From: a bacterium | GTDB taxonomy: Bacteria; J088; JAWLBW01 | Reading direction: 5' to 3' | Length of the DNA stretch: 64,000 nucleotides | Assembly (NCBI GenBank): GCA_041690355.1 | Contig: JAWLHK010000002.1 | Span: 283,082 to 347,081, forward strand | Shown: positions 518 through 40,645 of the stretch, in pieces | Position numbering within the stretch: position 1 is the first letter of the stretch | How the letters are laid out: every line of letters begins with the position of its first letter | Translations under genes and position numbers: made by a program | The notes under the pieces: generated by a model | Seen by the model: only the letters and a program-made list of their open reading frames with translations | Database searches by the model: none | What the model was told of the DNA's origin: nothing

Positions 518-565
518 GGCGGTTATTATATCCGCGCCGACCAACGGGCGCGACCCCCCACATCA

Positions 566-745
566 AGTTACGAGTTACGAGTGACGAGTGAACGAGTGAC
601 GAACACCTTACCGTTCGCCTCGAGCTTACGGACGAAGGCAGAGCCGGAGTCGACAGCGAGAGGTTGCGCAAACTGACGATTGACGATTTGGCGGAACGCG
701 CCCGCTGGCCCCCGTCCCTTGCTTCCTTGGCGCTCGGCGCTTGTC
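566..745. repeat. mosaic intergenic element, reverse orientation (TCACTCG array 566-605, AATCGTC units 675-688, AGCGCCG module 725-745)
   Basis: Tandem 7-bp units cgagtta/cgagtga, gacgatt x2 and ccttggcgctcggcgcttg; the reverse complement of 601-688 aligns with 10563-10650 with few mismatches. Confidence 0.8.
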
Positions 746-811: not shown

Positions 812-835
812 TTGAAAGGGGGGGCATGGTAGAAT
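812..835 (+). promoter_or_regulatory. putative typA promoter with extended -10 (TGgTAGAAT) and weak TTGAAA -35
   Basis: ttgaaa at 812-817, TG at 827-828, tagaat at 830-835; the 11-mer catggtagaat is repeated upstream of rimP. Confidence 0.35.
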
Positions 836-887: not shown

Positions 888-2717
<1,830 letters not shown>

Positions 2718-2718
2718 A

Positions 2719-2830
2719 TTTACGATTGACGATTGACGATTGACAATTTTCGGAACGAACCCTGGCATGCTGCCCGTTCTTGCGGGAGCCGGTCAAATCG
2801 TCAATTGTAAATTGTAAATCGTCAATTTCC
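2719..2830. repeat. inverted pair of AATCGTC-type heptamer arrays (2719-2750 and 2794-2830) flanking a 43-bp core
   Basis: Arm 1 tttacgattgacgattgacgattgacaatttt, arm 2 caaatcgtcaattgtaaattgtaaatcgtcaatttcc; arms pair unit by unit with a few mismatches; begins 2 bp after the typA stop. Confidence 0.8.
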
Positions 2831-2862: not shown

Positions 2863-4473
2863 ATGAAACTCTATCTGCCGGAACTGCGGCTGCGGATTGA
2901 AGAGTCCGCTGAGTTGCTGCGCGAGCGGGCCGCAGGGCAGCTGCAGATCGCACCCGACGCCATCCGGAAGCTCGACATCCGCCGGCGCTCGCTCGATACC
3001 CGGCAGCGCGACGTCATCTGGAGCGTCTACGGCCTCGAGCTCGAAGTCGACCCCGCGGCCGTGGCGCCCGACACGGGCCGGCGCTTTTCGCAGATCCCCA
3101 AGCGGGCGCTTCCGGCGCCGCTCCCCCCGCGGCCTTCGCGGCTTCCCGAACACCCGATCGTCATCGTGGGCGCCGGTCCCGCCGGGCTCTTCTGCGCCCA
3201 GCGGCTGGCCGACGTGGGGGTCCCCTGCGTGCTCGTGGAACGGGGGAAGCCGATCCGCCGGCGCGCCCAGGATACCAAGCGGTTCAAGAAGAGCGGCGAG
3301 CTGAACCCCGAGAGCAACATCCAGTTCGGCGAGGGCGGAGCCGGAACCTACAGCGACGGCAAGCTGACCTACCGCACCGACGACCCGCTGTCGGCCTGGG
3401 TGCTCGAGACCTTCATCCGCTACGGGGCCGACCCGGAGATCCGCTATCTGAACCGCCCCCACATCGGCACCGAACACCTTCGCGCCTGCATCGTGCGCAT
3501 GAGCGAGGGGCTGTCGGCACAGGGGGTCGCCTTTCGCTTCGATTCCCGGTTGGAACATCTGGTCATCGAAGAGCAGGGGAACCGGAAAGTACTGCGCGCC
3601 GCGCGGCTGACCGACGGCGAGATTCCCGCGGAAAAGCTGGTGCTCGGCATCGGCCACTCCGCACGGGATACGTTTCTCGCGCTGCAGGCCGACGGGGTCC
3701 CCTTCGTCGCCAAGCCGTTCGCCGTGGGGGTGCGCGCGGAACATCCGCAATTGCTCGTGGACCAGAGCCAGTACGGCCGGCATGCCGATAATCCTGCGCT
3801 GCCGCGGGCGAGCTACGCCCTGTCGCAGCAGGTGCGCACCGACGCAGAGCGGGGCGTCTATTCCTTCTGCATGTGTCCGGGCGGCGAGACGATGGCTTGC
3901 TCGAGCGAGTTCGGTGGCGTCGTCACGAACGGCATGAGCTACTCCGTGCAGCGCAGCGGCGTGGCCAGCTCGGGGCTCGTGGTCAGCGTGAATCCGCCGG
4001 ACTGCGGCGACCCGGCGGATGCGTTTGCCGGGATGCGCTTTCAGCGTTCCCTCGAAGAAGCGGCCTTCCGTCTCGGCGGCGGAACTTACTTCGCGCCGGC
4101 GCAGGGAATTTCCGATTTCCTGAGTGGCAAGGTTTCCGGTCGTCTTGGCGCGCAGGGAACCACGTACCATCCCGGGGTGACCGAAGCCGATCTGCGTACG
4201 ATCCTTCCGCCGTTCGTCACGGCCGCGCTCGAGCGGGCACTCCCCGCGTTCGAGCGGCGCATCCGCGGGTACACGGGCGAGAGCGGAATCATCGTGGGGG
4301 TCGAGACGCGCACGAGCAGCCCGGTGCGCATCCCCCGCGAAGAGGACCTGCAGGCCACCGGCTGGACCGGCCTGTATCCCGTGGGCGAAGGCGCCGGGTA
4401 TGCGGGCGGCATCGTGAGCGCGGCTGTCGACGGCGTGCGCGCGGCCGACGCGATCCTGAAAGCCCTGGCGTGA
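2863..4473 (+). CDS. FAD-dependent oxidoreductase (uncharacterized FAD-dependent dehydrogenase family)
   Basis: 536 aa; dinucleotide-binding motif IVIVGAGPAGLFCA and GIGHSARD segment typical of this family. Confidence 0.75.
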   Translation: MKLYLPELRLRIEESAELLRERAAGQLQIAPDAIRKLDIRRRSLDTRQRDVIWSVYGLELEVDPAAVAPDTGRRFSQIPKRALPAPLPPRPSRLPEHPIVIVGAGPAGLFCAQRLADVGVPCVLVERGKPIRRRAQDTKRFKKSGELNPESNIQFGEGGAGTYSDGKLTYRTDDPLSAWVLETFIRYGADPEIRYLNRPHIGTEHLRACIVRMSEGLSAQGVAFRFDSRLEHLVIEEQGNRKVLRAARLTDGEIPAEKLVLGIGHSARDTFLALQADGVPFVAKPFAVGVRAEHPQLLVDQSQYGRHADNPALPRASYALSQQVRTDAERGVYSFCMCPGGETMACSSEFGGVVTNGMSYSVQRSGVASSGLVVSVNPPDCGDPADAFAGMRFQRSLEEAAFRLGGGTYFAPAQGISDFLSGKVSGRLGAQGTTYHPGVTEADLRTILPPFVTAALERALPAFERRIRGYTGESGIIVGVETRTSSPVRIPREEDLQATGWTGLYPVGEGAGYAGGIVSAAVDGVRAADAILKALA

Positions 4474-4493
4474 GGCGGGCTGCACAGCCGCGC

Positions 4494-4710
4494 ATTCCTG
4501 ATTCCTGATTCCTGATTCTTGATTCTTGACTCCTTGAGCCGGAAGGTGAAGCGCCGAGCGCCGAGCGCTAAGCACCGAGGAAGGGCAAAGGTTTCATCGT
4601 CCTTGTCTGAAATCGTCAATTGTAAATCGTCAATCGTCAATTCCCGTGACTTGACGCGCGCCCGCCGACTCTATATTTTGACTCTTGACCCCTGACTCTC
4701 GACTCGCGAC
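4494..4710. repeat. mosaic intergenic element (ATTCCTG array 4494-4537, AGCGCCG module 4548-4580, AATCGTC array 4610-4645, GACTCTT-like array 4668-4710)
   Basis: Four distinct tandem heptamer arrays in a row between the FAD gene stop and the sterol-desaturase-family start. Confidence 0.8.
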
Positions 4711-4718
4711 GAAGAACC

Positions 4719-5594
4719 ATGCCCGACATCATCCTCTATGCCATTCCGTTCTTTCTGGGAACGGTGATTCTTGAAGCGGTCGTTTCGTCCTGGCTCAAGG
4801 TGAAGGACGTGAAGGGGTTCGAGAAGAAAGACACCTTCGCGAGCCTCGGCATGGGCATCGGCAACGTGCTCGTGAACCTGATGGTCAAGGGGGGCGTGTT
4901 CGCGAGCTTCACGTTCCTCCATCAGTTCCGCCTGTTCGACATCGGGACTGTCTGGTGGGCGTGGGTGCTGCTGCTGTTCGGCGAAGACCTCTGCTACTAC
5001 GCCTTTCACCGCGCGAGCCATGAGGTGCGCTTTCTCTGGGCGGCGCACGTCAATCACCACTCGAGCGAGCACTACAATTTGTCGACGGCGCTGCGCCAGT
5101 CGTGGACGACGCCGCTGACGAGCTTCTGGTTCTGGCTGCCGCTGCCGCTCCTCGGTTTCGAGCCGTGGATGATCGTGACCCAGCAGTCGATCAGCCTGCT
5201 CTATCAGTACTGGATTCACACCGAGTGGATCAAGAAGCTGCCGTTCGGTCTCGAAGGGGTGCTCAATTCTCCCTCGCACCACCGCGTGCACCACGGGTCG
5301 AACGCAGCGTATCTGGACCGCAACCACGGCGGCATCCTGATCATCTGGGATCGCCTCTTCGGCACCTTCGCGCCCGAGCGCGAGAAGGTCGTCTACGGAC
5401 TGACGAAGAACATCCACACGTTCAACCTCGTGAAGATTGCCTTTCACGAGTGGGCCGCGCTGCTCAAGGACATGGCGCGTCCGAATCCGTTGTGGGTGCG
5501 GCTGCAGTATGCCCTGCGTCCGCCCGGATGGAGCCCCGACGGCTCGACCCTGACCTCGGATCAGCTTCGCGCGACGCAGCAGGCGCAGGCGTAA
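4719..5594 (+). CDS. fatty acid hydroxylase / sterol desaturase family membrane protein
   Basis: 291 aa; histidine boxes HRASH, HVNHH and HHRVHH in a multi-TM protein. Confidence 0.85.
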   Translation: MPDIILYAIPFFLGTVILEAVVSSWLKVKDVKGFEKKDTFASLGMGIGNVLVNLMVKGGVFASFTFLHQFRLFDIGTVWWAWVLLLFGEDLCYYAFHRASHEVRFLWAAHVNHHSSEHYNLSTALRQSWTTPLTSFWFWLPLPLLGFEPWMIVTQQSISLLYQYWIHTEWIKKLPFGLEGVLNSPSHHRVHHGSNAAYLDRNHGGILIIWDRLFGTFAPEREKVVYGLTKNIHTFNLVKIAFHEWAALLKDMARPNPLWVRLQYALRPPGWSPDGSTLTSDQLRATQQAQA

Positions 5595-8139: not shown

Positions 8140-10431
8140 TCAGTTCGCGCGACTCGTCATCTCGAAGACGATCTCGCGGCTCGTGGTCAGCTCTTCGTGC
8201 TCGAGGTAGTGCCGGTTGATGCGCTTACCGTCCACGTAGACCGCGCCGACATAGATATTCTTCTCCGAAGTTCCCGGCGCGCGAATGGTGAGGGTGCGGC
8301 CATTCTCGAGGCGGATGACGGCCTTTTCGAAGATCGGCGTGCCGATCCAGTAGCGGGTCGTGGCGGGAATCGGATAGAAGCCGAGGGCGCTGAAGATGTA
8401 CCAGGCCGACAGCGTGCCGCCGTCGTCGTTGCCGTCGAGGCCGTCGGGACCCGTGCCGTAGCGGCTTTCCATGACCCACCGGATGACCGGCGCGCCGCGT
8501 TTCGGTTCGCCCCACATCGCATACAGGTAGGGGGCGTGCAGGTCGGGCTCGTTGCCGTGCCAGTAGTAGTTGTCGGGCATGCGGATATCGCCGAGATATG
8601 GCTTCGGCGTCTCCTGCGACTTCGTGAAGAAGTGGTCGAGCTTCGCCAGGGCCGCGTCGACGCCGCCGAGCAGCGTCGCCAGCTTCTCGACGTTCCACGG
8701 CACAAGCCAGAGGTACTGCCAGGCGTTGCCCTCGGTGTAATCGTCGGTGTGGTTGAGCGGGTCGAGGGCCGGTAGCGCCCAGGAGCCGTCTCGCTTTTTC
8801 GCGCGGAAAAAGCCGTTCTCCGCATCCCAGAGGGTGTCGAACGCGTCGGCCCGGTCTGCGAAGAACAGGGCGTCTTCTTCCTTGCCGATGGCCTGCGCGA
8901 ACCGGCTGATGGCAAAGTCGGCCCACATGTTTTCCTGCGTAACCGAAACGGAACCGTTGGTGTTGTCGGCGGTGCAGTGCCCGAGGGTGTTGTAATCGTC
9001 GACGCAGCGCCGCATGTTGTACGGGTCACCCCAGACGGCCGTCGAGACCATGAGCGCGTAGGCACGTTGCCAGTCGAAGTCGCGGATTCCCTTGAGATAG
9101 CTGTCTGCAATCACGATGTCGGCCGGGGTACCGATCATGGATGCCCCGTCACGGTGGGCGAAGGGCCAGCGGGGCAGGGAGCCGCGGGCGCGCCCCATTT
9201 CGACGAGTGAGCGCACGAAGTCGCGCTGATACGAGGGCGTCAGCCACGTCAGCAGCGGATGCAGCGTGCGGTAGGTATCCCACAGGCTCATGTCCGAGTA
9301 GAACTCGCTTCCGGCGTCGGCGGCGATGCTTCCGTCAAAGGCACGGTGGCGGCCGTTCACGTCGCTGTAGAGGCTCGGCATCTGCAGGGCATGGTAGAGG
9401 GCCGTGTAGAAGATTTCGCGCTGGTCGGGCGTGCCCCCTTCGACTTCAATCTGGTCGAGGCGGGTCTCCCAGACGGTGCGCGCCGCTTCGCGGATGTCGT
9501 CGAAGGTACGCCCGGCCGTTTCGACCGAGCGGTTCGCCTCGGCATCCCGGGCGCTCGTGAAGGAGATGCCGACGAAGACCTCGACCGGGGCCGACGGATC
9601 GAAGTGGAGATAGGCCCCCGTGCTTCCGCCGCTGCCGTCGGCGCGGGCGTTGATGCCGCGATCCTGGAGGGCGCCGCCGTCGGTGGTCGCGCTCCACACG
9701 CCGTACTTGCGGAAGGGCCTGCTGAAGACGGCATCCATGTAGATGGTGACGCCGCCGAAGCGCCCCGAAAAGGCGTTCCGCTGATGCAGGGAGCCGCGCA
9801 GCCGCTTCTCGCCGGGAAGGATCTCGATCTGGCTCCAGTCGACCTCGCCCGAAGAGAGCGTATGCCCGAGGTCGACCACGACGACGGCATCGGCGCCGGG
9901 GGGAAAGGTGTAGCGGTGCGCGCCGGTGCGCAGCGTGGCCGACAGCTCGGCGCGGATGGCCTGGGCCCGCTGTTCTTCATCGGCCGGATCGGAAACGCCC
10001 AGATCGACGGCGTAGTACCCCGGCTCGCCGACCTCGGCCCCGTGCGTAAAGGGGGCGCTGTATCCGCGCCAGCTCGTTTTCTCGGCGGTCATGCCGAGCG
10101 TGGGCATGAAGGTGACGTTGCCGTAATCGATGGCGCCGGTGCCGTGGACGTGCGTGTGGCTGAAGCCTTCGATGTGCGTATCGCCGTAGAAGTAGCCGGC
10201 GAAGTGCGCGAAGGTCTCCCGGCCGAAGAGTCCGCCCTGGGTGTCGGGGCTCAGTTTGACGAGGCCGAAGGGGAGGGCGGCGCCCGGGTAGCAGCTGCCG
10301 GCGCCGAACCCGGTGCCCCCCGTGCCGATGAAGACGTCGACCTCTTCGAACGGCGAGCGCCGCTCGGATTCGGGAAGCGGAGGGCAGGCGGCGAGCAGGA
10401 AAGCGAAAATCAGGAAGACGAATCGCATCAT
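8140..10431 (-). CDS. glycoside hydrolase family 92 (alpha-mannosidase-like), secreted/lipoprotein
   Basis: About 764 aa; signal peptide MRFVFLIFAFLLAAC; GH92 N-terminal signature VFIGTGGTGFGAGSCYPGAALPFGLVKLSPDT. Confidence 0.85.
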   Translation of the reverse strand: MMRFVFLIFAFLLAACPPLPESERRSPFEEVDVFIGTGGTGFGAGSCYPGAALPFGLVKLSPDTQGGLFGRETFAHFAGYFYGDTHIEGFSHTHVHGTGAIDYGNVTFMPTLGMTAEKTSWRGYSAPFTHGAEVGEPGYYAVDLGVSDPADEEQRAQAIRAELSATLRTGAHRYTFPPGADAVVVVDLGHTLSSGEVDWSQIEILPGEKRLRGSLHQRNAFSGRFGGVTIYMDAVFSRPFRKYGVWSATTDGGALQDRGINARADGSGGSTGAYLHFDPSAPVEVFVGISFTSARDAEANRSVETAGRTFDDIREAARTVWETRLDQIEVEGGTPDQREIFYTALYHALQMPSLYSDVNGRHRAFDGSIAADAGSEFYSDMSLWDTYRTLHPLLTWLTPSYQRDFVRSLVEMGRARGSLPRWPFAHRDGASMIGTPADIVIADSYLKGIRDFDWQRAYALMVSTAVWGDPYNMRRCVDDYNTLGHCTADNTNGSVSVTQENMWADFAISRFAQAIGKEEDALFFADRADAFDTLWDAENGFFRAKKRDGSWALPALDPLNHTDDYTEGNAWQYLWLVPWNVEKLATLLGGVDAALAKLDHFFTKSQETPKPYLGDIRMPDNYYWHGNEPDLHAPYLYAMWGEPKRGAPVIRWVMESRYGTGPDGLDGNDDGGTLSAWYIFSALGFYPIPATTRYWIGTPIFEKAVIRLENGRTLTIRAPGTSEKNIYVGAVYVDGKRINRHYLEHEELTTSREIVFEMTSRAN

Positions 10432-10494
10432 AGCGATGGATTCTACCATGGCGCGTCATTTCTGTAACGCGCTACTTGAGCGCCGGGCACCAGT

Positions 10495-10672
10495 CAAGCG
10501 CCGAGCGCCGAGCGCTGAGCGCCAAGGAAACAAGCACATGGGTATTTTCGGTACTTTCCGGTAAATCGTCAATCGTCAGTATGCGCAACCTCTCGCTGTC
10601 GACTCCGGCCCTGCCTTCGTCGGTCAGCTCGAGGCGAACGGGAATGTCACTCGTCACTCGTAACTCGTAACT
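10495..10672. repeat. mosaic intergenic element, forward orientation (AGCGCCG module 10495-10527, AATCGTC units 10563-10579, TCACTCG array 10647-10672)
   Basis: Same module order and internal unique sequence as the reverse-oriented element at 566-745. Confidence 0.8.
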
Positions 10673-10754
10673 TCGCGGAGCGCTCCCCCTTCCCCCCTTG
10701 GCAAGGGGACGCACTACAATAGGGAAGCGTGAACGCCGCCTCGAGGAGTTACCG

Positions 10755-15375: not shown

Positions 15376-15450
15376 TGGTGGGCGATGTAGGGATCGAACC
15401 TACGACTTCCACCGTGTGAAGGTGGCACTCTCCCGCTGAGTTAATCGCCC
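15376..15450 (-). tRNA. tRNA-Val (anticodon CAC)
   Basis: Minus-strand read GGGCGATTAACTCAGCGGGAGAGTGCCACCTTCACACGGTGGAAGTCGTAGGTTCGATCCCTACATCGCCCACCA folds as a cloverleaf: 7-bp acceptor stem, D and T arms, anticodon loop TTCACAC, encoded CCA. Confidence 0.9.
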
Positions 15451-15510
15451 GAGTGCATGCAGGAATCGAAAATTGTAGCAGCCCCTTTCGGAATGATCAA
15501 TGGGGCCGCT

Positions 15511-15649
15511 GCCAAGCGCTGAGCACCGAGCGCCCATGAGGAACGAGAAACGTGATCAAGGTTCTTGCCTGGATTCGTCACTCGTCACTCGTAACTCGTA
15601 ACTCGGCACTTGCATAAATCGTCAATCGTCAATCGTAAATTGTAAATTC
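15511..15649. repeat. mosaic intergenic element (AGCGC module 15511-15535, caaggttcttgcc 15557-15569, TCACTCG array 15573-15606, AATCGTC array 15616-15649)
   Basis: Tandem heptamers as in the other elements; the AATCGTC array overlaps the last codons of the 15622..16008 gene. Confidence 0.8.
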
Positions 15650-16008
15650 TCCGGCTCCGCCGCCGCCGCCTCGATGGTTCCGCCCGGGGCCACCAGATAG
15701 AACCCGGCATCCCCGTCACCGTACTCCCCGGACGGATCCGACAGCAGCGGCGCCTGGATGCCGAACCGGTCGCACAGCGCGCGCGCTTCGGCTGGTTCGG
15801 CCGCCACGATCAGATAGACGTTCACGAAATCTTCGAGCAGCCAGTGGGCCACGCGCGCGGCCGCGGCTTCGAGCAGGCGCTCCTGTCTCGCACGGGGAAC
15901 AATGCCGACGACCGTGTGCCCGCGGGCGAAGATTTCGGCCAGATCGATGTTCCCCCCCTTGCTCGAAGCCAGACGGCGGGCGGGAAACGGCGTGCGGACG
16001 GCAATCAT
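15622..16008 (-). CDS. hypothetical protein with degenerate thioredoxin/peroxiredoxin-like segments (no CxxC)
   Basis: 128 aa from MIAVRTP; APLLSDPSGEYGDG and FYLVAPGGTIE resemble peroxiredoxin motifs but no catalytic Cys is present; C-terminal ENLQFTIDD is encoded by the heptamer array. Confidence 0.4.
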   Translation of the reverse strand: MIAVRTPFPARRLASSKGGNIDLAEIFARGHTVVGIVPRARQERLLEAAAARVAHWLLEDFVNVYLIVAAEPAEARALCDRFGIQAPLLSDPSGEYGDGDAGFYLVAPGGTIEAAAAEPENLQFTIDD

Positions 16009-16151
16009 TGGAGGGCGCTCGGGAAAGAGGTTCGTTCCGTTCCAGTATACGGAATTCCACCCGCGGTCGCCGCCGGAGGAGCGACGGTCGTGCATACTTT
16101 CGCTGCGGCGGGCGGGCGGCCGATTTGTCCGGGCATCCCCGCCGCGCTATC

Positions 16152-17396
16152 ATGACTGGCATGACAGCCTGGCAGGGAAAACAGGTTCTTCTCGGGGTGA
16201 GCGGCGGGATCGCCGCCTATCGCGCCGCCGAACTGGTGCGCCTTTTCGTCAAGGCCGGGGCGAGCGTGAACGTCGTCATGACGCGCAACGCCACCGAGTT
16301 CATCACGCCGCTCACGATGCAGACCCTGAGCGGAAATCCCGTACTTACGGACACCTTCGACCGGGAACAGGGAGCCGACATCAAGCATGTCTCGCTCCCC
16401 GACGAGGCGGATGTGATCGTGCTCGCGCCCGCCACGGCCAACCTCATCGGAAAGCTTGCGAACGGCATCGCCGACGACCTGCTGACGACCGCCCTGCTCG
16501 TGGCCCGCTGCCCCATCGTCATGGCGCCGGCCATGAACGTGCACATGTGGGATCACCCCGTCGTGCAGGAGAACCTCGCCCGGGTTCGCCGTATTCCCGG
16601 CCTTCGCGTCGTGGAACCCGTGGAGGGGCTGCTTGCCTGCGGCTGGGAGGGAAAGGGGAAGCTGGCGGAGCCGGAGGCCATTTTCCGGGCGGCGGGCGAG
16701 GCCCTGCGTCCTCGGGATCTGAGCGGCCGCAGCCTGGTGCTCACGGCCGGGCCGACGCGGGAATTCCTCGATCCGGTCCGCTACCTTTCGAATCCGTCCA
16801 CCGGCAAGATGGGGCTCGCCATCGCCGAGGCCGCCGCCGTGCGCGGGGCCGACGTGACCGTCGTGCTCGGGCCCACCGCCGAGAAGCCTCCGGCCGGGGT
16901 GCGCGTCCTTCGGGTCGAATCGGCCGCCGACATGTTCGAGGCCGCGCGCGCGGCCTTCGCAGACGCCCAGGTGTTCATCGCCTCGGCTGCCGTCGCCGAT
17001 TACACGCCGGCGGTGCGCGAAGACCGTAAAGTGAAGAAAAGCGAGGGGGATGTCGACGTACGCCTGACGCGCACGACCGACATCCTCAAGACGCTTGCCG
17101 CCGACAAGGGTGAGCGGATCGTCGTCGGCTTCGCGGCCGAGACGAACGACGTGGTCCGCTACGCGCGCGAGAAGCTTGTCGCCAAGAACTGCGATCTGGT
17201 CGTCGCCAACGACGTCACGGCGCCCGGAAGCGGGTTCGCCGTCGACACGAACCGGGCGATTCTGGTCGAACGGGAAGGCGAGACCGAGCTACCCCTGCTG
17301 ACCAAGCGTGAGATCGCCGACCGTATTCTCGATCGTGTCGTCGAGCTGCTTGCGCAGGGCGGCCGGATCGAGCGCCCTGAGCGCCACCGCGCCTGA
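16152..17396 (+). CDS. coaBC: bifunctional phosphopantothenoylcysteine decarboxylase / phosphopantothenate-cysteine ligase
   Basis: 414 aa from MTGMTAWQGK; flavoprotein N-domain (VLLGVSGGIAAYRAAEL) and CoaB C-domain (LVLTAGPTREFLDPVRYLSNPSTGKMG). Confidence 0.9.
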   Translation: MTGMTAWQGKQVLLGVSGGIAAYRAAELVRLFVKAGASVNVVMTRNATEFITPLTMQTLSGNPVLTDTFDREQGADIKHVSLPDEADVIVLAPATANLIGKLANGIADDLLTTALLVARCPIVMAPAMNVHMWDHPVVQENLARVRRIPGLRVVEPVEGLLACGWEGKGKLAEPEAIFRAAGEALRPRDLSGRSLVLTAGPTREFLDPVRYLSNPSTGKMGLAIAEAAAVRGADVTVVLGPTAEKPPAGVRVLRVESAADMFEAARAAFADAQVFIASAAVADYTPAVREDRKVKKSEGDVDVRLTRTTDILKTLAADKGERIVVGFAAETNDVVRYAREKLVAKNCDLVVANDVTAPGSGFAVDTNRAILVEREGETELPLLTKREIADRILDRVVELLAQGGRIERPERHRA

Positions 17397-17397
17397 A
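17318..17397. repeat. 80-bp direct repeat, copy 1 (3' end of coaBC)
   Basis: Matches 21988-22067 with 4 mismatches in 80 bp; encodes the CoaBC C-terminus on the plus strand. Confidence 0.85.
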
Positions 17398-21961: not shown

Positions 21962-22981
21962 CTAGGCCCGCGAGCCCGTGGGCGGCTCGACCGGATTCTC
22001 GACCGTGTCGTCGAGCTGCTTGCGCAGGGCGGCCGGATCGAGCGCCTTGAGCGCCATCGCGCCTGAACCCGGCACCCGGTCGGGATACCGGTTCGTCCAT
22101 GTACGCGCCGGAAAATCGAACTCCAGAATCGGCGCCAGCTCCTGAAAGTGCATGTCGGGATCAAACTCCGACTTGCGCCGCATGCGCCGGCCTTCCTTAT
22201 GCAGGCGCTGGGCCGTGTCGAGCATGCGCTGCCCGGTCGGATCGTTGTGGTAGGTATGCGAGCGATCCAGCTGATGCAGCATGTCGAAAATACTGTTCAT
22301 GGCCAGGTGATCGTAGCGGTGCGCGTCGGCGGCGTCGAACTGCCATGGTGAGCGCTGGTTCATGGAATTGAGCGCGCTGCGCCACTGCTTCATGTTCTGC
22401 ACGAACAGGGTCGAGTTGAAGATCATTTTGTTCACGCGGTGTGAAAAGATGGTCTCTTCGAGCTGCGACTGGAGCAGCGCGTCGTCGCGCGGATCCACCA
22501 GACGCTGAATACGGCCGGCCATGTCCCAGATCGGTTTCTGCGTCCGCCCGTCGTAGCGCACCTCCCAGTAGGCATGCTTGAATCCCCGCGGGGCGTCGCT
22601 GCGCAGGACCTGGGAGGGAATGAATATGTTGTGGGCGATCGTGTCGGCGGCCAGGTGGGTGATATAGCCCCACATGAAGGCTTTCTGCGGCTCGTCGGGG
22701 GCCTTTTCGAGCAGCTCGAAGGCGACGTCCCAGTTGTGGCAGTGCAGCCGGTAATCGATGTACTTCTTGCCCAGAATCAGATCGGCCGCCAGGTTCCCGT
22801 ACATGTAGTCGAACGAGTACGTGGCGAGCAGCGTGCGCAGGGCGACCGGCACCATCTCGAGGTTGATGAGGACCTCGCTCGCAAAGCGCAGATGCGTGGC
22901 GGGGCCCCAGGCCCATGCCGCGTCGGGCACGAGAAAAACGAGCAGAAAACCGATGAAGATGGACAAGAAAACCATGCGCAC
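21962..22981 (-). CDS. zinc-dependent phospholipase C family protein
   Basis: 339 aa; signal peptide; WGPATHLRF and GYITHLAADTIAHN metal-ligand motifs; last ~25 codons lie on the reverse strand of the 80-bp repeat. Confidence 0.65.
   Translation of the reverse strand: MRMVFLSIFIGFLLVFLVPDAAWAWGPATHLRFASEVLINLEMVPVALRTLLATYSFDYMYGNLAADLILGKKYIDYRLHCHNWDVAFELLEKAPDEPQKAFMWGYITHLAADTIAHNIFIPSQVLRSDAPRGFKHAYWEVRYDGRTQKPIWDMAGRIQRLVDPRDDALLQSQLEETIFSHRVNKMIFNSTLFVQNMKQWRSALNSMNQRSPWQFDAADAHRYDHLAMNSIFDMLHQLDRSHTYHNDPTGQRMLDTAQRLHKEGRRMRRKSEFDPDMHFQELAPILEFDFPARTWTNRYPDRVPGSGAMALKALDPAALRKQLDDTVENPVEPPTGSRA
21988..22067. repeat. 80-bp direct repeat, copy 2 (3' end of the phospholipase C-like gene, opposite strand)
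   Basis: Matches 17318-17397 with 4 mismatches. Confidence 0.85.
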
Positions 22982-27280: not shown

Positions 27281-27625
27281 ATGCGGAAGATTTTCTGCGC
27301 GCTGGGGTGGTCTTTTCTTCTGGTGGCCTGCGGCACGTTCGACGGGGAACCTCCGGGGGCTTCGGGCCCGGTGTCCCTGACAGAAGTGGACGAGACCGTC
27401 ATCATCAGCCAGTCGGACGATCGATGGAGCCGGTTCGAGCTTCCCGAAGAAGACGGGGAGTGTTCGCAGGACGCCGATTGCGAAATGGGGGGCTGTTCGG
27501 CCGAAGTCTGCACGACGGTCACGACGGCCCCGGAGCTGTTCACGACCTGTAACGAACAGCACCCCGGCAATGGTTTCCGTTGCGGCTGCATCCGGTCGCA
27601 TTGCCGCTGGCAGAAATACGAATGA
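27281..27625 (+). CDS. cysteine-rich lipoprotein (hypothetical)
   Basis: 114 aa; lipobox FLLVAC; eight further Cys in the mature part; gggaggaag RBS. Confidence 0.55.
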   Translation: MRKIFCALGWSFLLVACGTFDGEPPGASGPVSLTEVDETVIISQSDDRWSRFELPEEDGECSQDADCEMGGCSAEVCTTVTTAPELFTTCNEQHPGNGFRCGCIRSHCRWQKYE

Positions 27626-27726
27626 GCGTTCGGGCCGGGCCCGAACGCTCATTCCTGATTCCTGATTCTTGATTCCTGACCGGAACGCCCAGCGACTGCC
27701 GGCTGAAGACTGCCGCCTGAAGACTG
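27620..27726. repeat. mosaic intergenic element (palindromic hairpin 27620-27654, ATTCCTG array 27651-27681, CAGTCTT-family units 27694-27726)
   Basis: Perfect palindrome tgagcgttcgggc/gcccgaacgctca overlapping the stop codon, then attcctg x4, then a duplicated ctgccgNctgaagactg. Confidence 0.75.
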
Positions 27727-30306
27727 TTATTCGTACTCGAGCGCCGAGATGATGTTCGTCTTCGCGGCCTTCCACCCCGGATAGATGCTGGCCAGCACCG
27801 AGACGACGAAGGCGAGCAGAAAGCCGCCGACGACGCTCTCGAGGGGGAACACGAACGGGGTCGTCCAGCCGATGACCTCGCGCAGCATGATCTTCGTGAT
27901 GATGGCCGTGAAGCCGACCCCCGCCAGCACACCGAAGCTTCCCGCCAGAATCCCCATGACCCCCGCCTCGTTCATGACCAGCTTCTGCAGCTGCCGGCGG
28001 GTGAAGCCGATGGCGCGCAGCATCCCCAGCTCGCGGGTGCGGTCGAGCACCGAGACCATGAGCGTGTTGATGATGCCGATGACGGCGATGATGATGGCGA
28101 TGATGTACATGACATCGGTGATGCGGAACGCCTGCTGGACGGCAGTCTGCACCTCGGTCTTGTACTCGGAGTTCGTCTGCAGCACGAGCCGGTAGTTTTT
28201 CCCGAACTTGGCCGTGATCGCATCCCGCACGGCGGCGATGTTGGCCCCCGGCTTGAGGAAGACGTCATAGCTGTCGACGCCGTTGTCCTGGAAGTACTTC
28301 TTGAAGGTCGACCGGTCCATGCCGATGACTCCCTGGTCGCTCATGTAATCCACGCGCACTCCCGCAATCGAGAAGTCGTGCGCTCCGGTGGGGGTCTTGA
28401 GGGAGACCTTGTCGCCGGCATGCAGATTGAACCGGTTCATGAAGTTCTCCGACACGTAGACTGAGTCGTTGCCGGTCACCGCGTCGTAGACCTTCTCCGC
28501 TTCGCCCTCGATCCAGATGCCCGGGCTGTACTTACGGTATTCGGGCATCTGCACGCTGTAGAGCACGATGCCCGTGCCGCCGTAGCTCTGGTTGATCATG
28601 CGGAAGCGGTTGACGTCGGCGACCCCGTCTACCTCGCGCAGAATGTCGTCGCCCAGGGTCTCGGGCATGTCGACGGCGTCGGGGCCGGGCAGGGCCGACG
28701 AGCTGCGGATGACCAGGTCGGCCGTGACCGACTGCTCGAGCCATTCGAGCACCGAGCTCTGAAAGCTGAGCATCGTACCCTTGACCGCGACGGCCAGCGA
28801 AATGCCAATCATGAGCGCGCTCACGGTCACGCTCGTGCGGCCGGGCGTACGCGTGAGGTTGTCGGCACCCAGCTTACCCTCGACGCTGAAGAGCTTGCGC
28901 AGAACCGGGCTGAAGAGGTCGCCGGCCACCACGATGAGAATCGGGGCGAGCAGCGTGAGGGCGAGAAAGCCGAGCATGCTCGATGCCGAACCGACGAAGG
29001 GATTATCGAGGAACTTCTGGGCGTACAGGCCTGCGAACTGCAGGCCGAACAGGGCGATGCCCATGTAGAAGTACTTCATGTACGCCTTGCGCTGGGTCGC
29101 CTCCATGGCCACGGGGCGCATGGCCTCGAGCGGCGACACCGTCGCGGCCTGGCGGGCCGGCGCGATGGCCGAAAGCACCGAGGTGCCGACGCCGAGCGCG
29201 ATGACGATGCCGATATGCAGCGGCGACATGGCGATCTGGTCGATGTTGATCTTGAAGTAAGCCGTGCTGATCGTCTGCGCAACGATGGACGTCAACTCGC
29301 GCGCCAGCAGAAAGCCCGAGAAGCTGCCGATGGTTGCCCCGATGAGGCCGAGCACGCCCGCCTCGACGATGAAGATGCCGCGGATCTGGGCCGCCGTCAC
29401 ACCGAGGGCGCGCATGATGCCGATCTCGCGGCGGCGCTGGGCGACGGCCATCGAGAAGGTGTTGTAGATGAGAAACATGCCGACGAAGAGCGACAGGGCG
29501 CTCATGATCGTGAGGATCTGCTGAAAGCTCTTGAGCATGTTCTCGACCTGCCCCGAGCGCGCGCCCGGATAGCCGATCTCGTACCCTTCGCCCAGCGTCT
29601 CGCGCAGACGCGAGACCACGGCCTCACGCTCTTCGGCGCCGGCGTTCGGGGCCAGGATGATGTCGATCTGATCGAGGCGCCCTTCGCGCTCGAGCACGGT
29701 CATGGCGCTGTAGACGTCCATGATCAGCAGGTTGCCGCCGAAGACCTTCGCGGCCCCTTTTTCTTCGAGAATCGCGCGCACGGTCAGCGTCTTGAGCCCC
29801 GCGCCGGTCACCAGGTTGATCGTGTCGTCCTTCTTGATGCCGTACCGGTTCGCGAGAACGTTGGTCATCAGCACGCTGTCGGGGCTGTTGAGAAACTGCA
29901 GGGCGTCGATTTCTTCGCCCTTGTGCTCGTCATCCTCAGCCGTGAAGGTGCGAAAGTCCTTGTCGGCGAAGGTGTCGACGCCGAGCAGAATGATCGTGTC
30001 TTCGGGGTTCGACTCGAGAAAGGCGCTCGTGCGGATGATCGGCGTGGCCTTGGCAACCCCTTCGACCTGGGTCACCTGCTCGTAGACGGCCTCTTCGAAG
30101 CCGCTGCGGCCGCGGCTGATCTCAATCTGCGCCCGCCCGGCGACGTTGTTGATCATCTGGCGGAAAGAGGTGAGCGTGGCGTCGTTGACGAGCATGATGC
30201 CCACGAAGACGGTGATGCCCAGGGCGATGCCGACGACGGTCAGCCCGGTGCGCAGCAGGTGAAGCGTGAAGTGGCGCAGGCTGACGTTGCGAAGGAAAAA
30301 GAGCAT
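27727..30306 (-). CDS. ABC transporter permease, FtsX-like (MacB/LolCE type)
   Basis: 859 aa with two FtsX-like TM bundles and large periplasmic domains. Confidence 0.9.
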   Translation of the reverse strand: MLFFLRNVSLRHFTLHLLRTGLTVVGIALGITVFVGIMLVNDATLTSFRQMINNVAGRAQIEISRGRSGFEEAVYEQVTQVEGVAKATPIIRTSAFLESNPEDTIILLGVDTFADKDFRTFTAEDDEHKGEEIDALQFLNSPDSVLMTNVLANRYGIKKDDTINLVTGAGLKTLTVRAILEEKGAAKVFGGNLLIMDVYSAMTVLEREGRLDQIDIILAPNAGAEEREAVVSRLRETLGEGYEIGYPGARSGQVENMLKSFQQILTIMSALSLFVGMFLIYNTFSMAVAQRRREIGIMRALGVTAAQIRGIFIVEAGVLGLIGATIGSFSGFLLARELTSIVAQTISTAYFKINIDQIAMSPLHIGIVIALGVGTSVLSAIAPARQAATVSPLEAMRPVAMEATQRKAYMKYFYMGIALFGLQFAGLYAQKFLDNPFVGSASSMLGFLALTLLAPILIVVAGDLFSPVLRKLFSVEGKLGADNLTRTPGRTSVTVSALMIGISLAVAVKGTMLSFQSSVLEWLEQSVTADLVIRSSSALPGPDAVDMPETLGDDILREVDGVADVNRFRMINQSYGGTGIVLYSVQMPEYRKYSPGIWIEGEAEKVYDAVTGNDSVYVSENFMNRFNLHAGDKVSLKTPTGAHDFSIAGVRVDYMSDQGVIGMDRSTFKKYFQDNGVDSYDVFLKPGANIAAVRDAITAKFGKNYRLVLQTNSEYKTEVQTAVQQAFRITDVMYIIAIIIAVIGIINTLMVSVLDRTRELGMLRAIGFTRRQLQKLVMNEAGVMGILAGSFGVLAGVGFTAIITKIMLREVIGWTTPFVFPLESVVGGFLLAFVVSVLASIYPGWKAAKTNIISALEYE

Positions 30307-33078: not shown

Positions 33079-33081
33079 AAA

Positions 33082-33332
33082 CAGTCTTCAGGCGTCAGTC
33101 TCCGGTCCTCAGTCGGAATTCGTCACTCGACACTCGATACCCGTCACTGAGTATTCGTCACTCGTCACTCGTCACTCACACAAAGCGCCAAGCGCTGAGC
33201 ACCGAGTGCTGACGAGGCAAGGGCGAAGTGTTTCAAGGTTCTTGCCGGAAACGCGTCACTCGTCACTCGTAACTGAACAAGGTTCTTGCCGCTCAATCGT
33301 CAATCGTCAATCGTAAATCGTCAATCGACGAG
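33082..33332. repeat. largest mosaic intergenic element (CAGTCTT-family 33082-33114, TCACTCG array 33117-33180, AGCGC module 33184-33217, caaggttcttgcc 33234-33246 and 33278-33290, TCACTCG 33251-33275, AATCGTC array 33293-33332)
   Basis: All module types in one spacer, beginning 4 bp after the sulfatase stop and ending next to a TATAAT box upstream of rseP. Confidence 0.8.
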
Positions 33333-33357
33333 TGGGGCGTAGTATAATGAGCGAATC

Positions 33358-34692
33358 ATGGGAATTCTGACATTCATCCTCGTGCTGGGGATTCTGATCT
33401 TCGTTCACGAGTTCGGCCACTTCTATTTCGCGAAACGCGCGGGCGTCGGCGTCGAACGTTTCTCCATCGGCTTCGGCCCCAAACTTTTCGGCTTCACGCG
33501 GGGCGAAACGGAGTACCGCGTCGCCGCCATTCCGCTCGGCGGCTACGTGAAGATGGTCGGCGACAATCCCGACGAGGCCCGGCAGGGGACCGAGAAGGAA
33601 TTTCTGAGCCGCCCCGTGCGCGACCGGCTGCCCATCGTGCTGGCGGGCCCCATCGTGAACCTGGCGCTCGCGTTCGTGCTCATGCCGCTGGTCTACCTGC
33701 TCGGCGTGCAGGTACCCGCCTTCGTTCAGGAAAAGCCGGTCATCGGGTATGTCGAGCCGGGGAGCCCGGCCGAGCGCGCCGGCCTGCAGACGGGGGACGA
33801 AATCGTCGCCATCAACGGCAAGCCGATGCCCGCCTGGGAAGACGTGCTCGCCTCGACCATGGCCGAGCCCGGCAAGACGATTCAGGTGCGGCTGACCCGC
33901 GGCGGCTCCAGCCTGCAGGTTCCCGTGCATCTCGAAACCGCCGAGAGCGGGGCCGCGGCCTTCGGCGTGCAGCCCCCGGCCGTGCCCGTCGTCGGGCAGG
34001 TCAATCCCGGATCTCCCGCCGCCCTGGCCGGCCTGCAGCCGGGCGACCGGATCACCAGCCTGAACGGGGTGCCGGTCGACCACTGGGTGGCCATGGCCGA
34101 ACGCATCCAGTCGCTGGGGACGCAGCCGATTGAAGTCGGCTTCGCGCGCGACGGGGGCGAGCAGCGCGTCATGCTCACCCCCGAGCGCATGGCCGACGCC
34201 GACCGGGTCATCATCGGCATCCAGCGCAGCGAAGACCTGGTCGAGGTGCAATACGGCTTCGTCGACGCTGTGCGCGAAGGTTCGCGCCGCGTCGTACAGA
34301 TGACGACCCAGACCTTCGACATCCTGGGCAAGCTGCTGACCGGACAGCTGGGGGTGAAGACCCTGGGCGGCCCGATCCGCATCGCGCAGGTGACGTCGGC
34401 GGCGGCCGAAAGCGGCCTCTCCGACGTGCTGTCGCTGATGGCGTTTCTCTCGTTGCAGCTCGGCATTCTGAACCTGCTGCCGTTTCCGGTGCTCGACGGC
34501 GGGCACGTGCTCTTCATGAGCATCGAGGCCATCCGCCGCCGTCCGCTGTCGCGGCGCGCGCTCGAAATTTCGACGCAGGTCGGCTTCGTGCTGCTGCTCG
34601 TGCTCATGGTCGTCGTGACCAAGAACGACATCATGCACGCCTGGGGTCCGCAGATCGAGCGCATGTTCGACACGGTCCGTAATCTGTTCTGA
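33358..34692 (+). CDS. rseP: RIP metalloprotease RseP (site-2 protease)
   Basis: 444 aa; HEFGH zinc motif in TM1, PDZ region, C-terminal TM helices. Confidence 0.9.
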   Translation: MGILTFILVLGILIFVHEFGHFYFAKRAGVGVERFSIGFGPKLFGFTRGETEYRVAAIPLGGYVKMVGDNPDEARQGTEKEFLSRPVRDRLPIVLAGPIVNLALAFVLMPLVYLLGVQVPAFVQEKPVIGYVEPGSPAERAGLQTGDEIVAINGKPMPAWEDVLASTMAEPGKTIQVRLTRGGSSLQVPVHLETAESGAAAFGVQPPAVPVVGQVNPGSPAALAGLQPGDRITSLNGVPVDHWVAMAERIQSLGTQPIEVGFARDGGEQRVMLTPERMADADRVIIGIQRSEDLVEVQYGFVDAVREGSRRVVQMTTQTFDILGKLLTGQLGVKTLGGPIRIAQVTSAAAESGLSDVLSLMAFLSLQLGILNLLPFPVLDGGHVLFMSIEAIRRRPLSRRALEISTQVGFVLLLVLMVVVTKNDIMHAWGPQIERMFDTVRNLF

Positions 34693-38231: not shown

Positions 38232-40645
38232 ACCTTACGTCCTACCTCCTGCGCCAGACGCCTGTCGAGCCGACCCTTCTCGAGCAGATACTCGCGTTCA
38301 CGCAGGACAATCCCCAGGTCATCGCCGGCGCGGGCGTGCTGCTCGTGGTGCTTCTGGTGCTGCGCAAGTTCATCGGCTCCGATGCGGGCCCCAAACCGGG
38401 CAAGCTCCCCCGCAATCCGAAACAGGCCCGCCGGTGGGCCGAGCTGTCGATTCAGGCCAACAAGTTTCGCCAGGCGGGCGACTTCTACCTCATCGCCAAC
38501 GAATACGAAGCGGCTTACAACGCGTTTGCGCGCGCCGCCGCTTACGACGAGGCCGCCGAGGCGGCGCTTGCGCTCGGTGCCAAGGAAAAAGCGGCGATGA
38601 TGCTCGAAAAGGCGAAGAAGTATGTCGCCGCCGCGAAGCTGTATCAGCAGTCGGGACGCTACAACGACGCCGGCGAGGTCTTCGCGCGTGCCGGTAACGA
38701 TACCCTTGCCGCCGAAGCCTTCGAGGCGGCTGGCAACTGGGGCAAGGGGGCCCTGCACTTCGAGCGCGCCCGCAACCACGTCAAGGCGGCCGACCTCTAT
38801 GTGAAGGCGCGGGATTTCAAGAAGGCCGGCGCCCTGTACGAAGCTGCCTACCGCGAGGCGCGGCAGCAGTCGAAGGAGAACCCCGCGCGGACGCGCCAGG
38901 CCGGCGAGTTCGCGCTCAAGGCTGCGGGCTGCTTTGAGAAGATCAAGGAAGTGAAACCGGCCATCGCCGTTCTGAGCGACGCCGGCTTCTTCGAAAAGGC
39001 GGCCGGCCTGCTGCGCTCGACCAACGATCTCGAGGGGGCCGCCGACCTCTACGTCAAGGCCAACCTCCCGCTGCAGGCCGCCGATCTCTACGTGCAGATG
39101 GGCGACCCCGAGCGCGCCGCCCGCCTCAAGGGCGATGTCCTGCGTTCGGAGGGGAACGAGCTGGCCGCCGCCGATAATTACCGGCAGGCCGGTGAGTATC
39201 TGGAAGCGGCCGAAATCTTCCGCCGGCACAACCATTACGCCGAAGCCGCCTCGATGTATCTGCAGGTGGGCGATTACCTGCAGGCAGGCGAAATGTTCCT
39301 GCGCGCCAAGGACCCACGCAAGGCGGCCGAGGCCTGGGAGCGCGCGGGTGACTATCGCCGGGCCGCCGAGGTCTACCAGCGGCTCGGCGACGGCCGCAAG
39401 CAGAGCGAACTGCTCGAGCGCGCCGGCGAGTCGTTCGAAGCCGGGCTGAATTACTACCGTCTGAAGCTCCCCGACGAGGCCGTGCGGGTGCTTTCGTCGA
39501 TTCCCGGCGAGCATCCCTCGTTCCGCAAGGCCTGCAACCTGCTCGGCGACATCTATCGCGAAAAGGGAGACGCGGCGCAAGCCGTCAAGAAGTATCAGCA
39601 GGCGGTCGAGGGGCAGAAGGTCAGTCAGGCCAACCTGCATCCCTATTACAATCTGGCGCGCGTGCTCGAAGAGTCGGGCGACCCGCGCCTCGCCTTCGCC
39701 CTGTTTCGCAAGATTCAGCAGGAAGACAGCCAGTTTCAGGACGTGGCGGCGCGCGTCAACACGCTCAAGTCGCGCGTCGAAGAGGCCGATCGCAAAGAGC
39801 GCGAGAAGACGGCGCCCCCCGATACGAGCACGGCCACGCCCGTGGTCGCGCGCGCCAAGAAGCGTTATACGCTGTTGTCGGAGATCGGCCGCGGCGGCAT
39901 GGGAATCGTCTACAAGGCGCACGATCAGGTGCTCGACCGTGTCGTCGCCTTCAAGGTGCTCCCCTCCGATCTGCGCAACAATGACGTGGCGGTGAAGAAC
40001 TTCCTGCGCGAAGCCAAGGCCGCCGCCGGGCTGAACCACCCGAACATCGTCATCGTCTACGACGCCGGCGAAGAGGGTGACAACTATTATATCGCCATGG
40101 AGTACATCGAGGGGCGTACGCTGCGCGACATCGTCGTCGCCGACGGCAAGATTCCGCTGCCCGGGCTCATGGTCATCACGGCCCAGCTCTGCCGGGCCAT
40201 GGAGTACGCGCACGGCCGCAGCGTGGTTCATCGCGACATCAAGGGCTCGAACATCATGTGGACCGACGCCAAGCTCGTCAAGGTCATGGATTTCGGGCTC
40301 GCCAAGGTCATTCAGGAAGTCGTCAACTTTCAGACCGTGGTCGGCGGCACCCCGCACTACATGGCGCCCGAACAGATCCTGGGCGAAGAAATCGACCGCC
40401 GCGCCGACCTGTATTCGCTGGGGGTCACGCTCTACGAGTGCGCCACGGGCACCGTCCCGTTTCCCAAGGGCGACGTCGGCTACCATCACATCCACACCCC
40501 TGCACCCGACCCGCGCGAGTTCAACAAGGATGTACCCGAGGCCTATGCCAAGCTGCTTCTGAAGTGCCTCGTGAAGGATCCGGCGGCACGCTATCAGAGC
40601 GCCGCCGAAATCTACGAGGACCTCAAGGAAATTCGGGTGCGATAA
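38228..40645 (+). CDS. membrane-anchored Ser/Thr protein kinase with TPR-like helical repeat region
   Basis: 805 aa; N-terminal TM; about 450 aa of Ala-rich repeats; C-terminal kinase domain ([29 protein letters not shown]); GTG start. Confidence 0.85.

Follow-up and report, generated by a model that had tools for sequence, protein, structure and literature searches.

Heptanucleotide array composites in the intergenic regions of an uncultured bacterium, and a near-identical inverted pair among them

The stretch of DNA studied here, hereafter the window, comprises 64,000 nt of contig JAWLHK010000002.1 (assembly GCA_041690355.1) from an uncultured bacterium, and all counts of arrays, repeats and modules refer to it unless otherwise stated. 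We examined two intergenic elements within it, each built of short tandem arrays of 7-nt units around a core cassette: composite A, between ruvX and typA, and composite B, between a GH92 gene and a gene encoding an FHA-domain protein. The original prediction, made from the sequence alone, had described these as near-identical inverted copies of one another and had argued for a mobile or recombining element. The genes that it placed on either side of locus A are those found there, RuvX (Pfam E 9e-41) and TypA/BipA.

Composite A occupies 179 bp (565-743, minus strand) between the core promoters of ruvX and typA. Read along the minus strand, it begins with a CAAGCGCC-GAGCGCC-AAGGAAG module of two GAGCGCC units (722-743, one of five copies found with an nhmmer profile), followed by a diverged spacer (689-721), homologous by alignment and nhmmer to the spacers of loci B to E, by an (AATCGTC)2+AG segment in the register TCGTCAA-TCGTCAG (673-688, from the tandem repeat search), by a unique core cassette (603-672, from alignment and repeat search) and by a TCGTCAC-TCGTTCAC-TCGTCAC-(TCGTAAC)2 array (565-602), which lies at about -48 to -85 from the predicted ruvX start. 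A putative -10 box, TATAAT (525-530, minus strand), is found 7 nt before the ruvX ATG (515-517), and typA (888-2717) is preceded by TGgTAGAAT, a candidate extended -10 element (827-835, plus strand), with a TAGAAT/TAAAAT box conserved in relatives. The relatives compared throughout are the nearest in a protein collection (TypA 77-82% identical; loci L121-L125), and two of them carry TATACT (L121) and TACAAT (L123) at the -10 position of ruvX. Because the TATAAT box lies 7 nt before the ATG and its position is conserved in these relatives, ruvX is very probably leaderless, with composite A upstream of its transcript.

Composite B (10495-10673, plus strand) fills the space between the promoters of the GH92 gene and the FHA-domain gene, and has the same succession of parts: a CAAGCGCC-(GAGCGCC/T)3-AAGGAAA module of four units (10495-10530, from the tandem repeat search and nhmmer), a diverged spacer (10531-10563, from alignment and nhmmer), an (AATCGTC)2+AG segment (10564-10579, from the tandem repeat search), the unique core cassette (10580-10646, from alignment) and a TCAC-TCGTCAC-(TCGTAAC)2 array (10647-10673). 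The last of these lies at about -54 to -80 from the predicted start of the FHA-domain gene, which has its ATG at 10755 and a putative promoter with TACAAT at 10715-10720 (plus strand). On the other side, a GTTACA-17-TGgTAGAAT promoter-like site (10440-10468, minus strand) of the divergent GH92 gene (8140-10431) is separated by 27 nt from the left end of the composite. TANAAT boxes 7-9 nt before a start codon were seen at ruvX (515-532), at the GH92 gene (10431-10448), the real start of which is probably an ATG at ~10431 and not at 10449, and at an M50 peptidase gene (33343-33360). The conservation of the ruvX box arrangement in relatives suggests that leaderless mRNAs may be frequent in the source lineage.

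Sequence comparison confirmed the inverted relationship between the two loci. A repeat search of the window aligned the reverse complement of 605-696 with 10556-10647 over 92 nt at 91% identity, and found 565-591 and 10647-10673 to be an inverted pair, 100% complementary over 27 nt; MAFFT alignment of the reverse complement of 540-780 with 10460-10710 placed the near identity in one uninterrupted block. A core 26-mer, GCGCAACCTCTCGCTGTCGACTCCGG, is exact at 644-669 (minus strand) and 10583-10608 (plus strand), with no match in 100 dinucleotide shuffles. Thus, the predicted near-identical intergenic pair stands, with coordinates correct to within one base and a unique core common to both copies, and it is not random. 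The copies were also said to differ by whole heptamer units, and this is borne out by a 14-column gap 3' of the core, where the TCGTCAC array of A is two units longer than that of B. Likewise, the upstream CAAGCGCCGAGCGCC...AAGGAA module is common to A (two units) and B (four units) as predicted, so that both arrays, the upstream GAGCGCC and the post-core TCGTMAN, differ by two units between the loci.

The core cassette is non-repetitive, spans ~65 nt and, among the composites of the window, is carried by A and B only. It is flanked by TCGTCAA-TCGTCAG on one side and by TCGTCAC units on the other, and therefore reads as if placed inside one TCGTMAN array in a single register. Between A and B, 57 of 60 core positions are identical (95%), as against 17 of 34 (50%) in the adjoining homologous spacer (Fisher p=6e-7), a disparity which argues that the similarity of the two loci reflects a mosaic history. 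The cassette would either have been copied between A and B long after the composites diverged, or have been held by selection.

The original prediction treated the pair as a unique element; instead, its array types and upstream module recur at five further loci of the window. Tandem Repeats Finder detected 20 period-7 arrays, compared with a mean of 2.0 and a maximum of 5 in 20 dinucleotide shuffles, and these cluster at seven intergenic loci within 34 kb (A, F, E, B, C, G and D). The units fall into the families TYGTMAN (TCGTCAC, TCGTAAC, TCGTCAA=AATCGTC and TTGTAAA), GAGYRCY and AYTCYTG, together with a 14-mer, GACTGCCGSCTGAA, and appear in a recurring order: a terminator-like hairpin, (ATTCCTG)n, (GAGCGCC)n-AAGGAA, a spacer of ~35 nt, TCGTMAN arrays and the next promoter. 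An nhmmer profile of the GAGCGCC module with its spacer found exactly five copies in the window (A to E, E 5e-6 to 2e-10), and its search across other genomes gave no match outside it. Alignment of the five composites holds across the module and reaches the first TCGTMAN array, and a (TCGTCAC)2(TCGTAAC)2 array of 26-27 nt is identical at loci A, B and C. The module copies, the alignment and this identical array place A and B in a single dispersed family that has at least five members.

The further members differ in their extent and surroundings. Composite C (15511-15650, plus strand) consists of the GAGCGCC module, spacer, (TCGTCAC)2(TCGTAAC)2 and (AATCGTC)n, and has the promoter of a minus-strand tRNA on one side and the 3' end of an ORF, also on the minus strand, on the other. 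Composites D and E each follow a stop codon and precede a promoter; D (33080-33330, plus strand), the longest of the same family, stops 15 nt short of the TATAAT box of the M50 peptidase gene, and E (4489-4650, plus strand), upstream of a fatty-acid hydroxylase gene, consists of (ATTCCTG)6, the GAGCGCC module, spacer and (AATCGTC)4. In A and B the TCGTCAA arrays come first, followed by the core and then the TCGTCAC arrays, and in C and D the two kinds of TCGTMAN array stand in the opposite order. Two further loci complete the set, namely F (2709-2830, plus strand), where a 45-nt spacer separates two inverted AATCGTC-type arrays in the gap between typA and an FAD-dependent gene, and G (27616-27728, plus strand), with a 16-bp hairpin, (ATTCCTG)4 and 2.4 copies of the 14-mer GACTGCCGSCTGAA between convergent genes. 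A short module, CAAGGTTCTTGCC, interrupts arrays three times, and the AATCGTC/AATTGTA arrays form AT-rich islands in a genome of 65% GC.

We made several additional observations at these loci. The arrays of locus F form a 124-nt hairpin (RNA minimum free energy -43.9 kcal/mol, z -4.56, 0/200 shuffles), in which C-to-T changes in several units would result in G-U pairs in a plus-strand transcript. At locus G, the perfect 16-bp hairpin stands directly before (ATTCCTG)4 (z -3.84); (ATTCCTG)6 likewise follows a post-stop hairpin at 4474-4534, and an inverted copy of the GACTGCCGSCTGAA array (83%) opens composite D (33080-33115). A GACTCNN-type heptamer run is found at ~4678-4708, between a TATATT box and the start codon. 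Beside locus C, a promoter-like site of the tRNA (15379-15500, minus strand), TTGATC-17-TACAAT, is separated by 14 nt from the composite's end, and the minus-strand ORF (15622-16095), for which no Pfam match was found, ends in the AATCGTC array (...LQFTIDD*), its TGA stop being made by the repeat.

We investigated the distribution of these composites in the relatives, one of which (L121) retains the synteny ruvX, typA, FAD-dependent gene, TetR and fatty-acid hydroxylase. Heptamer arrays are absent from the syntenic loci of L121-L125, where the ruvX-typA spacer measures 213-220 bp, compared with 371 bp here, a difference of about the size of composite A. Period-7 arrays number 0.2 per 10 kb in the relatives versus 3.1 in the window. 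The empty syntenic sites show that the composites were gained, clearly recently, in the source lineage. At locus E, between the FAD-dependent and fatty-acid hydroxylase genes, a 245-bp gap (4474-4718) filled by composite E is found where relatives carry a TetR-family gene (L121 13548-14219, L122 3636-4298), which is missing here.

Further copies of the core, which the original prediction had proposed to look for, were not found beyond the two in the window, nor in the public collections searched. A core 22-mer had no exact match in 100,044 GTDB representative genomes or in Joint Genome Institute (JGI) metagenomes, a degenerate 31-mer of the second half of the core had none in the JGI metagenomes, and nhmmer and blastn-short, run on the window and on 125 loci of other genomes, identified neither a third copy nor a diverged one. 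A degenerate 3.5-unit TCGTMAM pattern, by comparison, matched at least 120 loci in other genomes, a few of which supply many each; the matches listed include Anaerolineae, Chloroflexaceae, Kouleothrix, Acidobacteriota and Verrucomicrobiota, as well as several Bacteroidota, a Planctomycetota metagenome-assembled genome (MAG), Geobacter, Desulfacinum and Marinobacterium. Period 7 dominates the tandem repeats at these loci (648 arrays in 1.1 Mb), each heptamer-rich genome has its own heptamer repertoire, arrays of different units cluster into composites, and short non-array cassettes recur beside them. In tandem intergenic regions of these genomes, delimited by crude gene calls, 42 TCGTMAN arrays point towards and 39 away from the downstream gene, and this lack of strand bias argues against a general role at the RNA level.

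Two of these genomes offer close parallels in arrangement. An ordered composite occurs three times in the Chloroflexaceae MAG JALONX01 (L098 ~5000-5230; L119 ~3780-4010 and ~8390-8610), beginning with (GTGAAAC)n and (GTAATGC)n, continuing with a unique GATGCTCAGGAT centre enclosed by inverted GGGAAATA/TATTTCC arrays, and closing with TCGTCAC/TCGTAAC arrays that end a few nt before a start codon; the loci fetched from this MAG contain 10.9 period-7 arrays per 10 kb. A similar composite style was seen in a low-GC Bacteroidaceae MAG from goat caecum (L002 11836-12517 and 13440-13620), where a linker, TTTTCCGCGCCGCATGGCC, is repeated and followed each time by TCGTAGC/TCGTCAC/TCGTAAC arrays.

The core was compared with RNA families and with folding expectations. 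At gathering score, Rfam returned tRNA only, and at E<=10 nothing relevant; RNA folds of both strands of both copies were no better than those of shuffles (z -0.8 to +0.6), the best hairpin of B is not preserved in A, where two substitutions break it, and no terminator was found for the core. We therefore dropped an RNA gene, on the grounds of the Rfam result to E<=10 and the lack of excess folding on either strand. We additionally set aside a conserved hairpin in the GAGCGCC spacer, for which alifold gave a weak -4.9 kcal/mol with a covariation term near 0.

In both copies, two reading frames run through the core without a stop, and in each frame all three internal substitutions are synonymous. 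The placing of three substitutions in one codon phase has a p of ~0.1 (about one in nine), and counts of synonymous and non-synonymous changes in six frames were not significant. The sense frame starts with ATG in copy B and TTG in copy A, no Shine-Dalgarno sequence precedes it, and beyond the indel the frames of the two copies differ; that of copy A continues into ruvX out of register. The antisense frame lacks a start codon in copy A, and in B begins inside the neighbouring gene. Its core peptide (613-675 / 10577-10639) resembles the G1 box of the CheA HATPase (60339-60395, VNLEVEDDGRGIDRERIRRK) with a tblastn E of 0.1, a resemblance that is probably due to chance. The core peptides had no match in Pfam or PDB at E<=10 and no homologue among 5.8 billion proteins. 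A small ORF or pseudogene fragment was thus rejected, given the missing Shine-Dalgarno sequence, the diverging frames and the lack of a homologue.

Nor was there evidence of transposition. No terminal inverted repeats are common to both copies, and a Pfam scan of ORFs in the first 35 kb, ordinary housekeeping genes, detected no transposase, REP-associated tyrosine transposase (RAYT) or reverse transcriptase. The palindromic unit of repetitive extragenic palindromic (REP) sequences, of REPINs or of bacterial interspersed mosaic elements (BIMEs) was not encountered at A or B, the strong hairpins being limited to loci F and G. A CRISPR-like array was dropped, as the units are of 7 nt and have no spacers between them.

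With moderate confidence, we interpret A and B as members of a lineage-specific intergenic mosaic-repeat family of tandem heptanucleotide arrays, similar to the long simple-sequence repeats (LSSR) and short tandemly repeated repetitive (STRR) sequences, and shaped by slippage and ectopic recombination. Of the features of heptanucleotide LSSR/STRR sequences, the elements of this family show the excess of 7-nt head-to-tail units, the intergenic position, the many loci, the sporadic distribution and the variation in unit number (here between the paralogous copies A and B), and they lack the tested features of miniature inverted-repeat transposable elements, REP/BIME sequences, structured RNAs and small protein genes. 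The arrays would grow and shrink by slipped-strand mispairing, since unit numbers differ by whole units, which is the signature of that process. Composites would spread, and be kept alike, through ectopic recombination or template switching from one array to another, and the same process would have copied the ~65-nt cassette between two pre-existing composites; ectopic recombination, gene conversion and template switching are the likely routes, with the arrays on both sides of the cassette as primers. Such copying would explain a cassette of 95% identity beside a saturated spacer of ~50%. The composites would occupy free DNA between terminators and core promoters, or between divergent core promoters, and would presumably have no sequence-specific product, their likeliest effect being at the DNA level (spacing, curvature or insulation between divergent promoters) or none. 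Of the original alternatives, "mobile or recombining", the recombining part fits the dispersed family, the array identical at three loci, the A/B mosaic, the differences in unit number that slippage would leave and the empty sites of the relatives; mobility of the transposon type is not supported, with no shared terminal inverted repeats, no transposase in the scanned ORFs and no further core copies in the window or the public collections.

Several points weigh against this interpretation. With two copies, recent copying and purifying selection would both account for the high identity of the core, and recombination is deduced from patterns in the sequence. The array order of A and B is the reverse of that of C and D, so that a simple donor or recipient of conversion is not obvious. 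The copy number of the core is that of the 64-kb window, and promoter positions are predicted from consensus and from conservation in relatives. Finally, locus A contains an imperfect inverted repeat of 24 nt (541-564 and 685-708, 19/24) that brackets the array-core-array unit exactly; none of 100 shuffles reached 19 (maximum 17), its 13-bp closing stem is kept in the centroid of the single-strand DNA fold, and one of its arms stands in place of the spacer segment conserved among the other four members of the family. Such an arrangement resembles insertion into a palindrome more closely than gene conversion, and our model leaves it unexplained.

It is mainly this inverted repeat that keeps alive another explanation, namely a small non-autonomous mobile element, made up of the whole array-core-array unit or of just the core, that would insert into TCGTMAN arrays or palindromes and be moved in trans by an enzyme with its gene elsewhere in the genome. 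The repeat could be the mark of an insertion into a palindrome, or of a local template-switch event, but locus B lacks it, and its arms, repeated nowhere else, do not form a family. The core is moreover flanked in the register TCGTCAG-core-TCGTCAC, as a 6-7-bp duplication into an array would leave; yet the target-site duplication that the original prediction had proposed to look for was absent from the ends of the composites, and the TCGTCA on both sides of the core is indistinguishable from an array unit. The empty syntenic sites of the relatives, the arrays interrupted by CAAGGTTCTTGCC and the short dispersed cassettes beside arrays in other heptamer-rich genomes all fit such an element, but it would be one with two copies in 64 kb and none in the public collections, with a core hairpin not beyond chance and with no mobilising enzyme among the scanned ORFs. 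We regard it as possible, though unlikely. A further proposal, in which ordered multi-heptamer composites are a distinct class of array-bodied non-autonomous mobile DNA, propagated as units and with cassettes inserting into arrays through an unknown enzyme, would explain why the same arrays and architecture occur in isolated genomes whose near relatives lack them. Genomes of this kind, with TCGTMAN arrays and the composite architecture, were found in Chloroflexota, Acidobacteriota, Verrucomicrobiota, Bacteroidota, Desulfobacterota and the source lineage; we consider the proposal speculative, with a small chance of being correct.

A role in gene expression offers a different reading of the same features. 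The composites might be selected cis-acting elements, either AT-rich arrays akin to UP elements or heptad sites of a regulator or nucleoid protein, that tune or insulate divergent promoters, with the unit number setting the response as in the TTTTGAT heptads of the Vibrio cholerae ctxAB promoter. The arrays at A and B do stand just upstream of predicted core promoters, those at D and E abut the -35 zone, the AATCGTC/AATTGTA arrays are AT-rich, composites A, B and C are sandwiched between two promoters, and selection would preserve the core beside a saturated spacer. Nevertheless, the relatives express the same genes without arrays, the neighbouring genes are functionally unrelated (RuvX, FHA protein, M50 protease, fatty-acid hydroxylase and tRNA), arrays also follow stop codons or sit between convergent genes (F and G), no orientation bias is seen in other genomes and no binding protein is known, and we accordingly judge this reading to be rather improbable. 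Very little probability attaches to the core as a gene product, whether a small RNA, with A and B as its two paralogues, or a short ORF, which would encode 29 aa on the element strand or use the open frame of the opposite strand. The two open frames with their synonymous substitutions, the ATG and TTG starts and the faint likeness to CheA are what could be cited for it, but the sense frame has no ribosome-binding site, the antisense frame of copy A has no start, no homologue was found, the phase of the substitutions falls short of significance, and the core has neither an Rfam match, nor excess folding energy, nor a terminator.

Two other repeats of the window belong to different contexts. A direct repeat of 80 nt (95%) occurs at 17318-17397 and 21988-22067. 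Its first copy forms the 3' end of coaBC (...DRILDRVVELLAQGGRIERPERHRA*). The second, preceded by unrelated sequence, specifies these 25 residues with a single difference, and the 3' end of a phospholipase-C-like ORF on the minus strand overlaps it. Of the four substitutions between the copies, three are synonymous in the plus frame. A direct repeat of 239 nt (74%), with copies 2.4 kb apart at 39878-40116 and 42307-42545, lies in or beside a 938-aa ORF (40258-43074) and is probably an internal or paralogous protein repeat.

Among known systems, the SDR (small dispersed repeats) of Nostoc punctiforme, reportedly described by Elhai and colleagues in 2008, are said to measure 21-27 nt, to share a hairpin, to occur in many copies and to nest in other repeats. 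They resemble the core as very short repeated cassettes nested in repeats, and differ from it in that the core is ~65 nt long, forms no significant hairpin and is known from two copies. The TTTTGAT heptads of Vibrio cholerae ctxAB (bioRxiv 10.1101/2021.05.14.444153) likewise form an array immediately upstream of a core promoter, with a unit number that varies between copies, but at a single locus and with the binding proteins ToxR and H-NS, in contrast to the many loci and several unit types seen here. BIME and REP-REPIN elements (PMC3116915) are intergenic high-copy mosaics of motifs and linkers in a set order that evolve within the genome, and in this are similar to the composites; their units are, however, imperfect palindromes mobilised by RAYTs, whereas composites A and B consist of direct tandem arrays that lack a palindromic unit, and a RAYT was not seen in the scanned ORFs.

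The nearest counterparts are other heptanucleotide repeats, on record in bacteria since the accounts of the cyanobacterial STRR. They are the commonest long simple-sequence repeats, with a sporadic phylogeny, and an origin in polymerase slippage was proposed (Mrazek et al. 2007, as related in PMC4679880 and PMC4692102). Cases include the cyanobacterial STRR, TAACTGA (PMC4679880) and GGGAATC in Xanthomonas (PMC4692102), and none of them has an established function. The TAACTGA repeats of marine Beggiatoaceae, cyanobacteria and Bacteroidetes (MacGregor 2015, PMC4679880) form arrays of 2-6 units, intergenic near gene starts and patchy across phyla; a similar unit, TAACTCG, is present in our arrays, and TAACTGA itself closes the array at 33268-33274. 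Those of Beggiatoaceae lie within a few nt from the start codon in forward orientation and have been given a proposed translational role, whereas the arrays here lie upstream of predicted leaderless or short-leader promoters, in both orientations, and also after stop codons. The GGGAATC/GGGGAYT repeats of Xanthomonas and Nostoc (Rehm et al. 2015, PMC4692102) form ~180 intergenic heterogeneous arrays per genome, vary in length among close relatives and include inverted pairs able to form hairpins, as at locus F, but are G-rich and quadruplex-forming, while the units here have no G-runs.

The class to which we assign A and B is thus one already described and functionally unsolved, and A and B add a member to it. 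The window is a compact example of heptamer arrays in a GC-rich uncultured lineage and a handle for separating slippage, ectopic recombination and transposition when the whole genome or variant strains become accessible; for annotation, it teaches that near-identical intergenic pairs in heptamer-rich genomes should not be taken by default for small RNAs, small ORFs or transposons. Like LSSR/STRR sequences in general, the arrays consist of 7-nt units in 2-8 copies, heterogeneous within an array and variable in number, are over-represented, intergenic and spread over many loci per genome, and are sporadic in phylogeny, with close relatives that have none. They differ from the described cases in their units (TCGTMAN, GAGCGCC and ATTCCTG), in their uncultured host of 65% GC and in the joining of several arrays, in a recurring order and with short unique linkers, into a composite that is dispersed as a unit.

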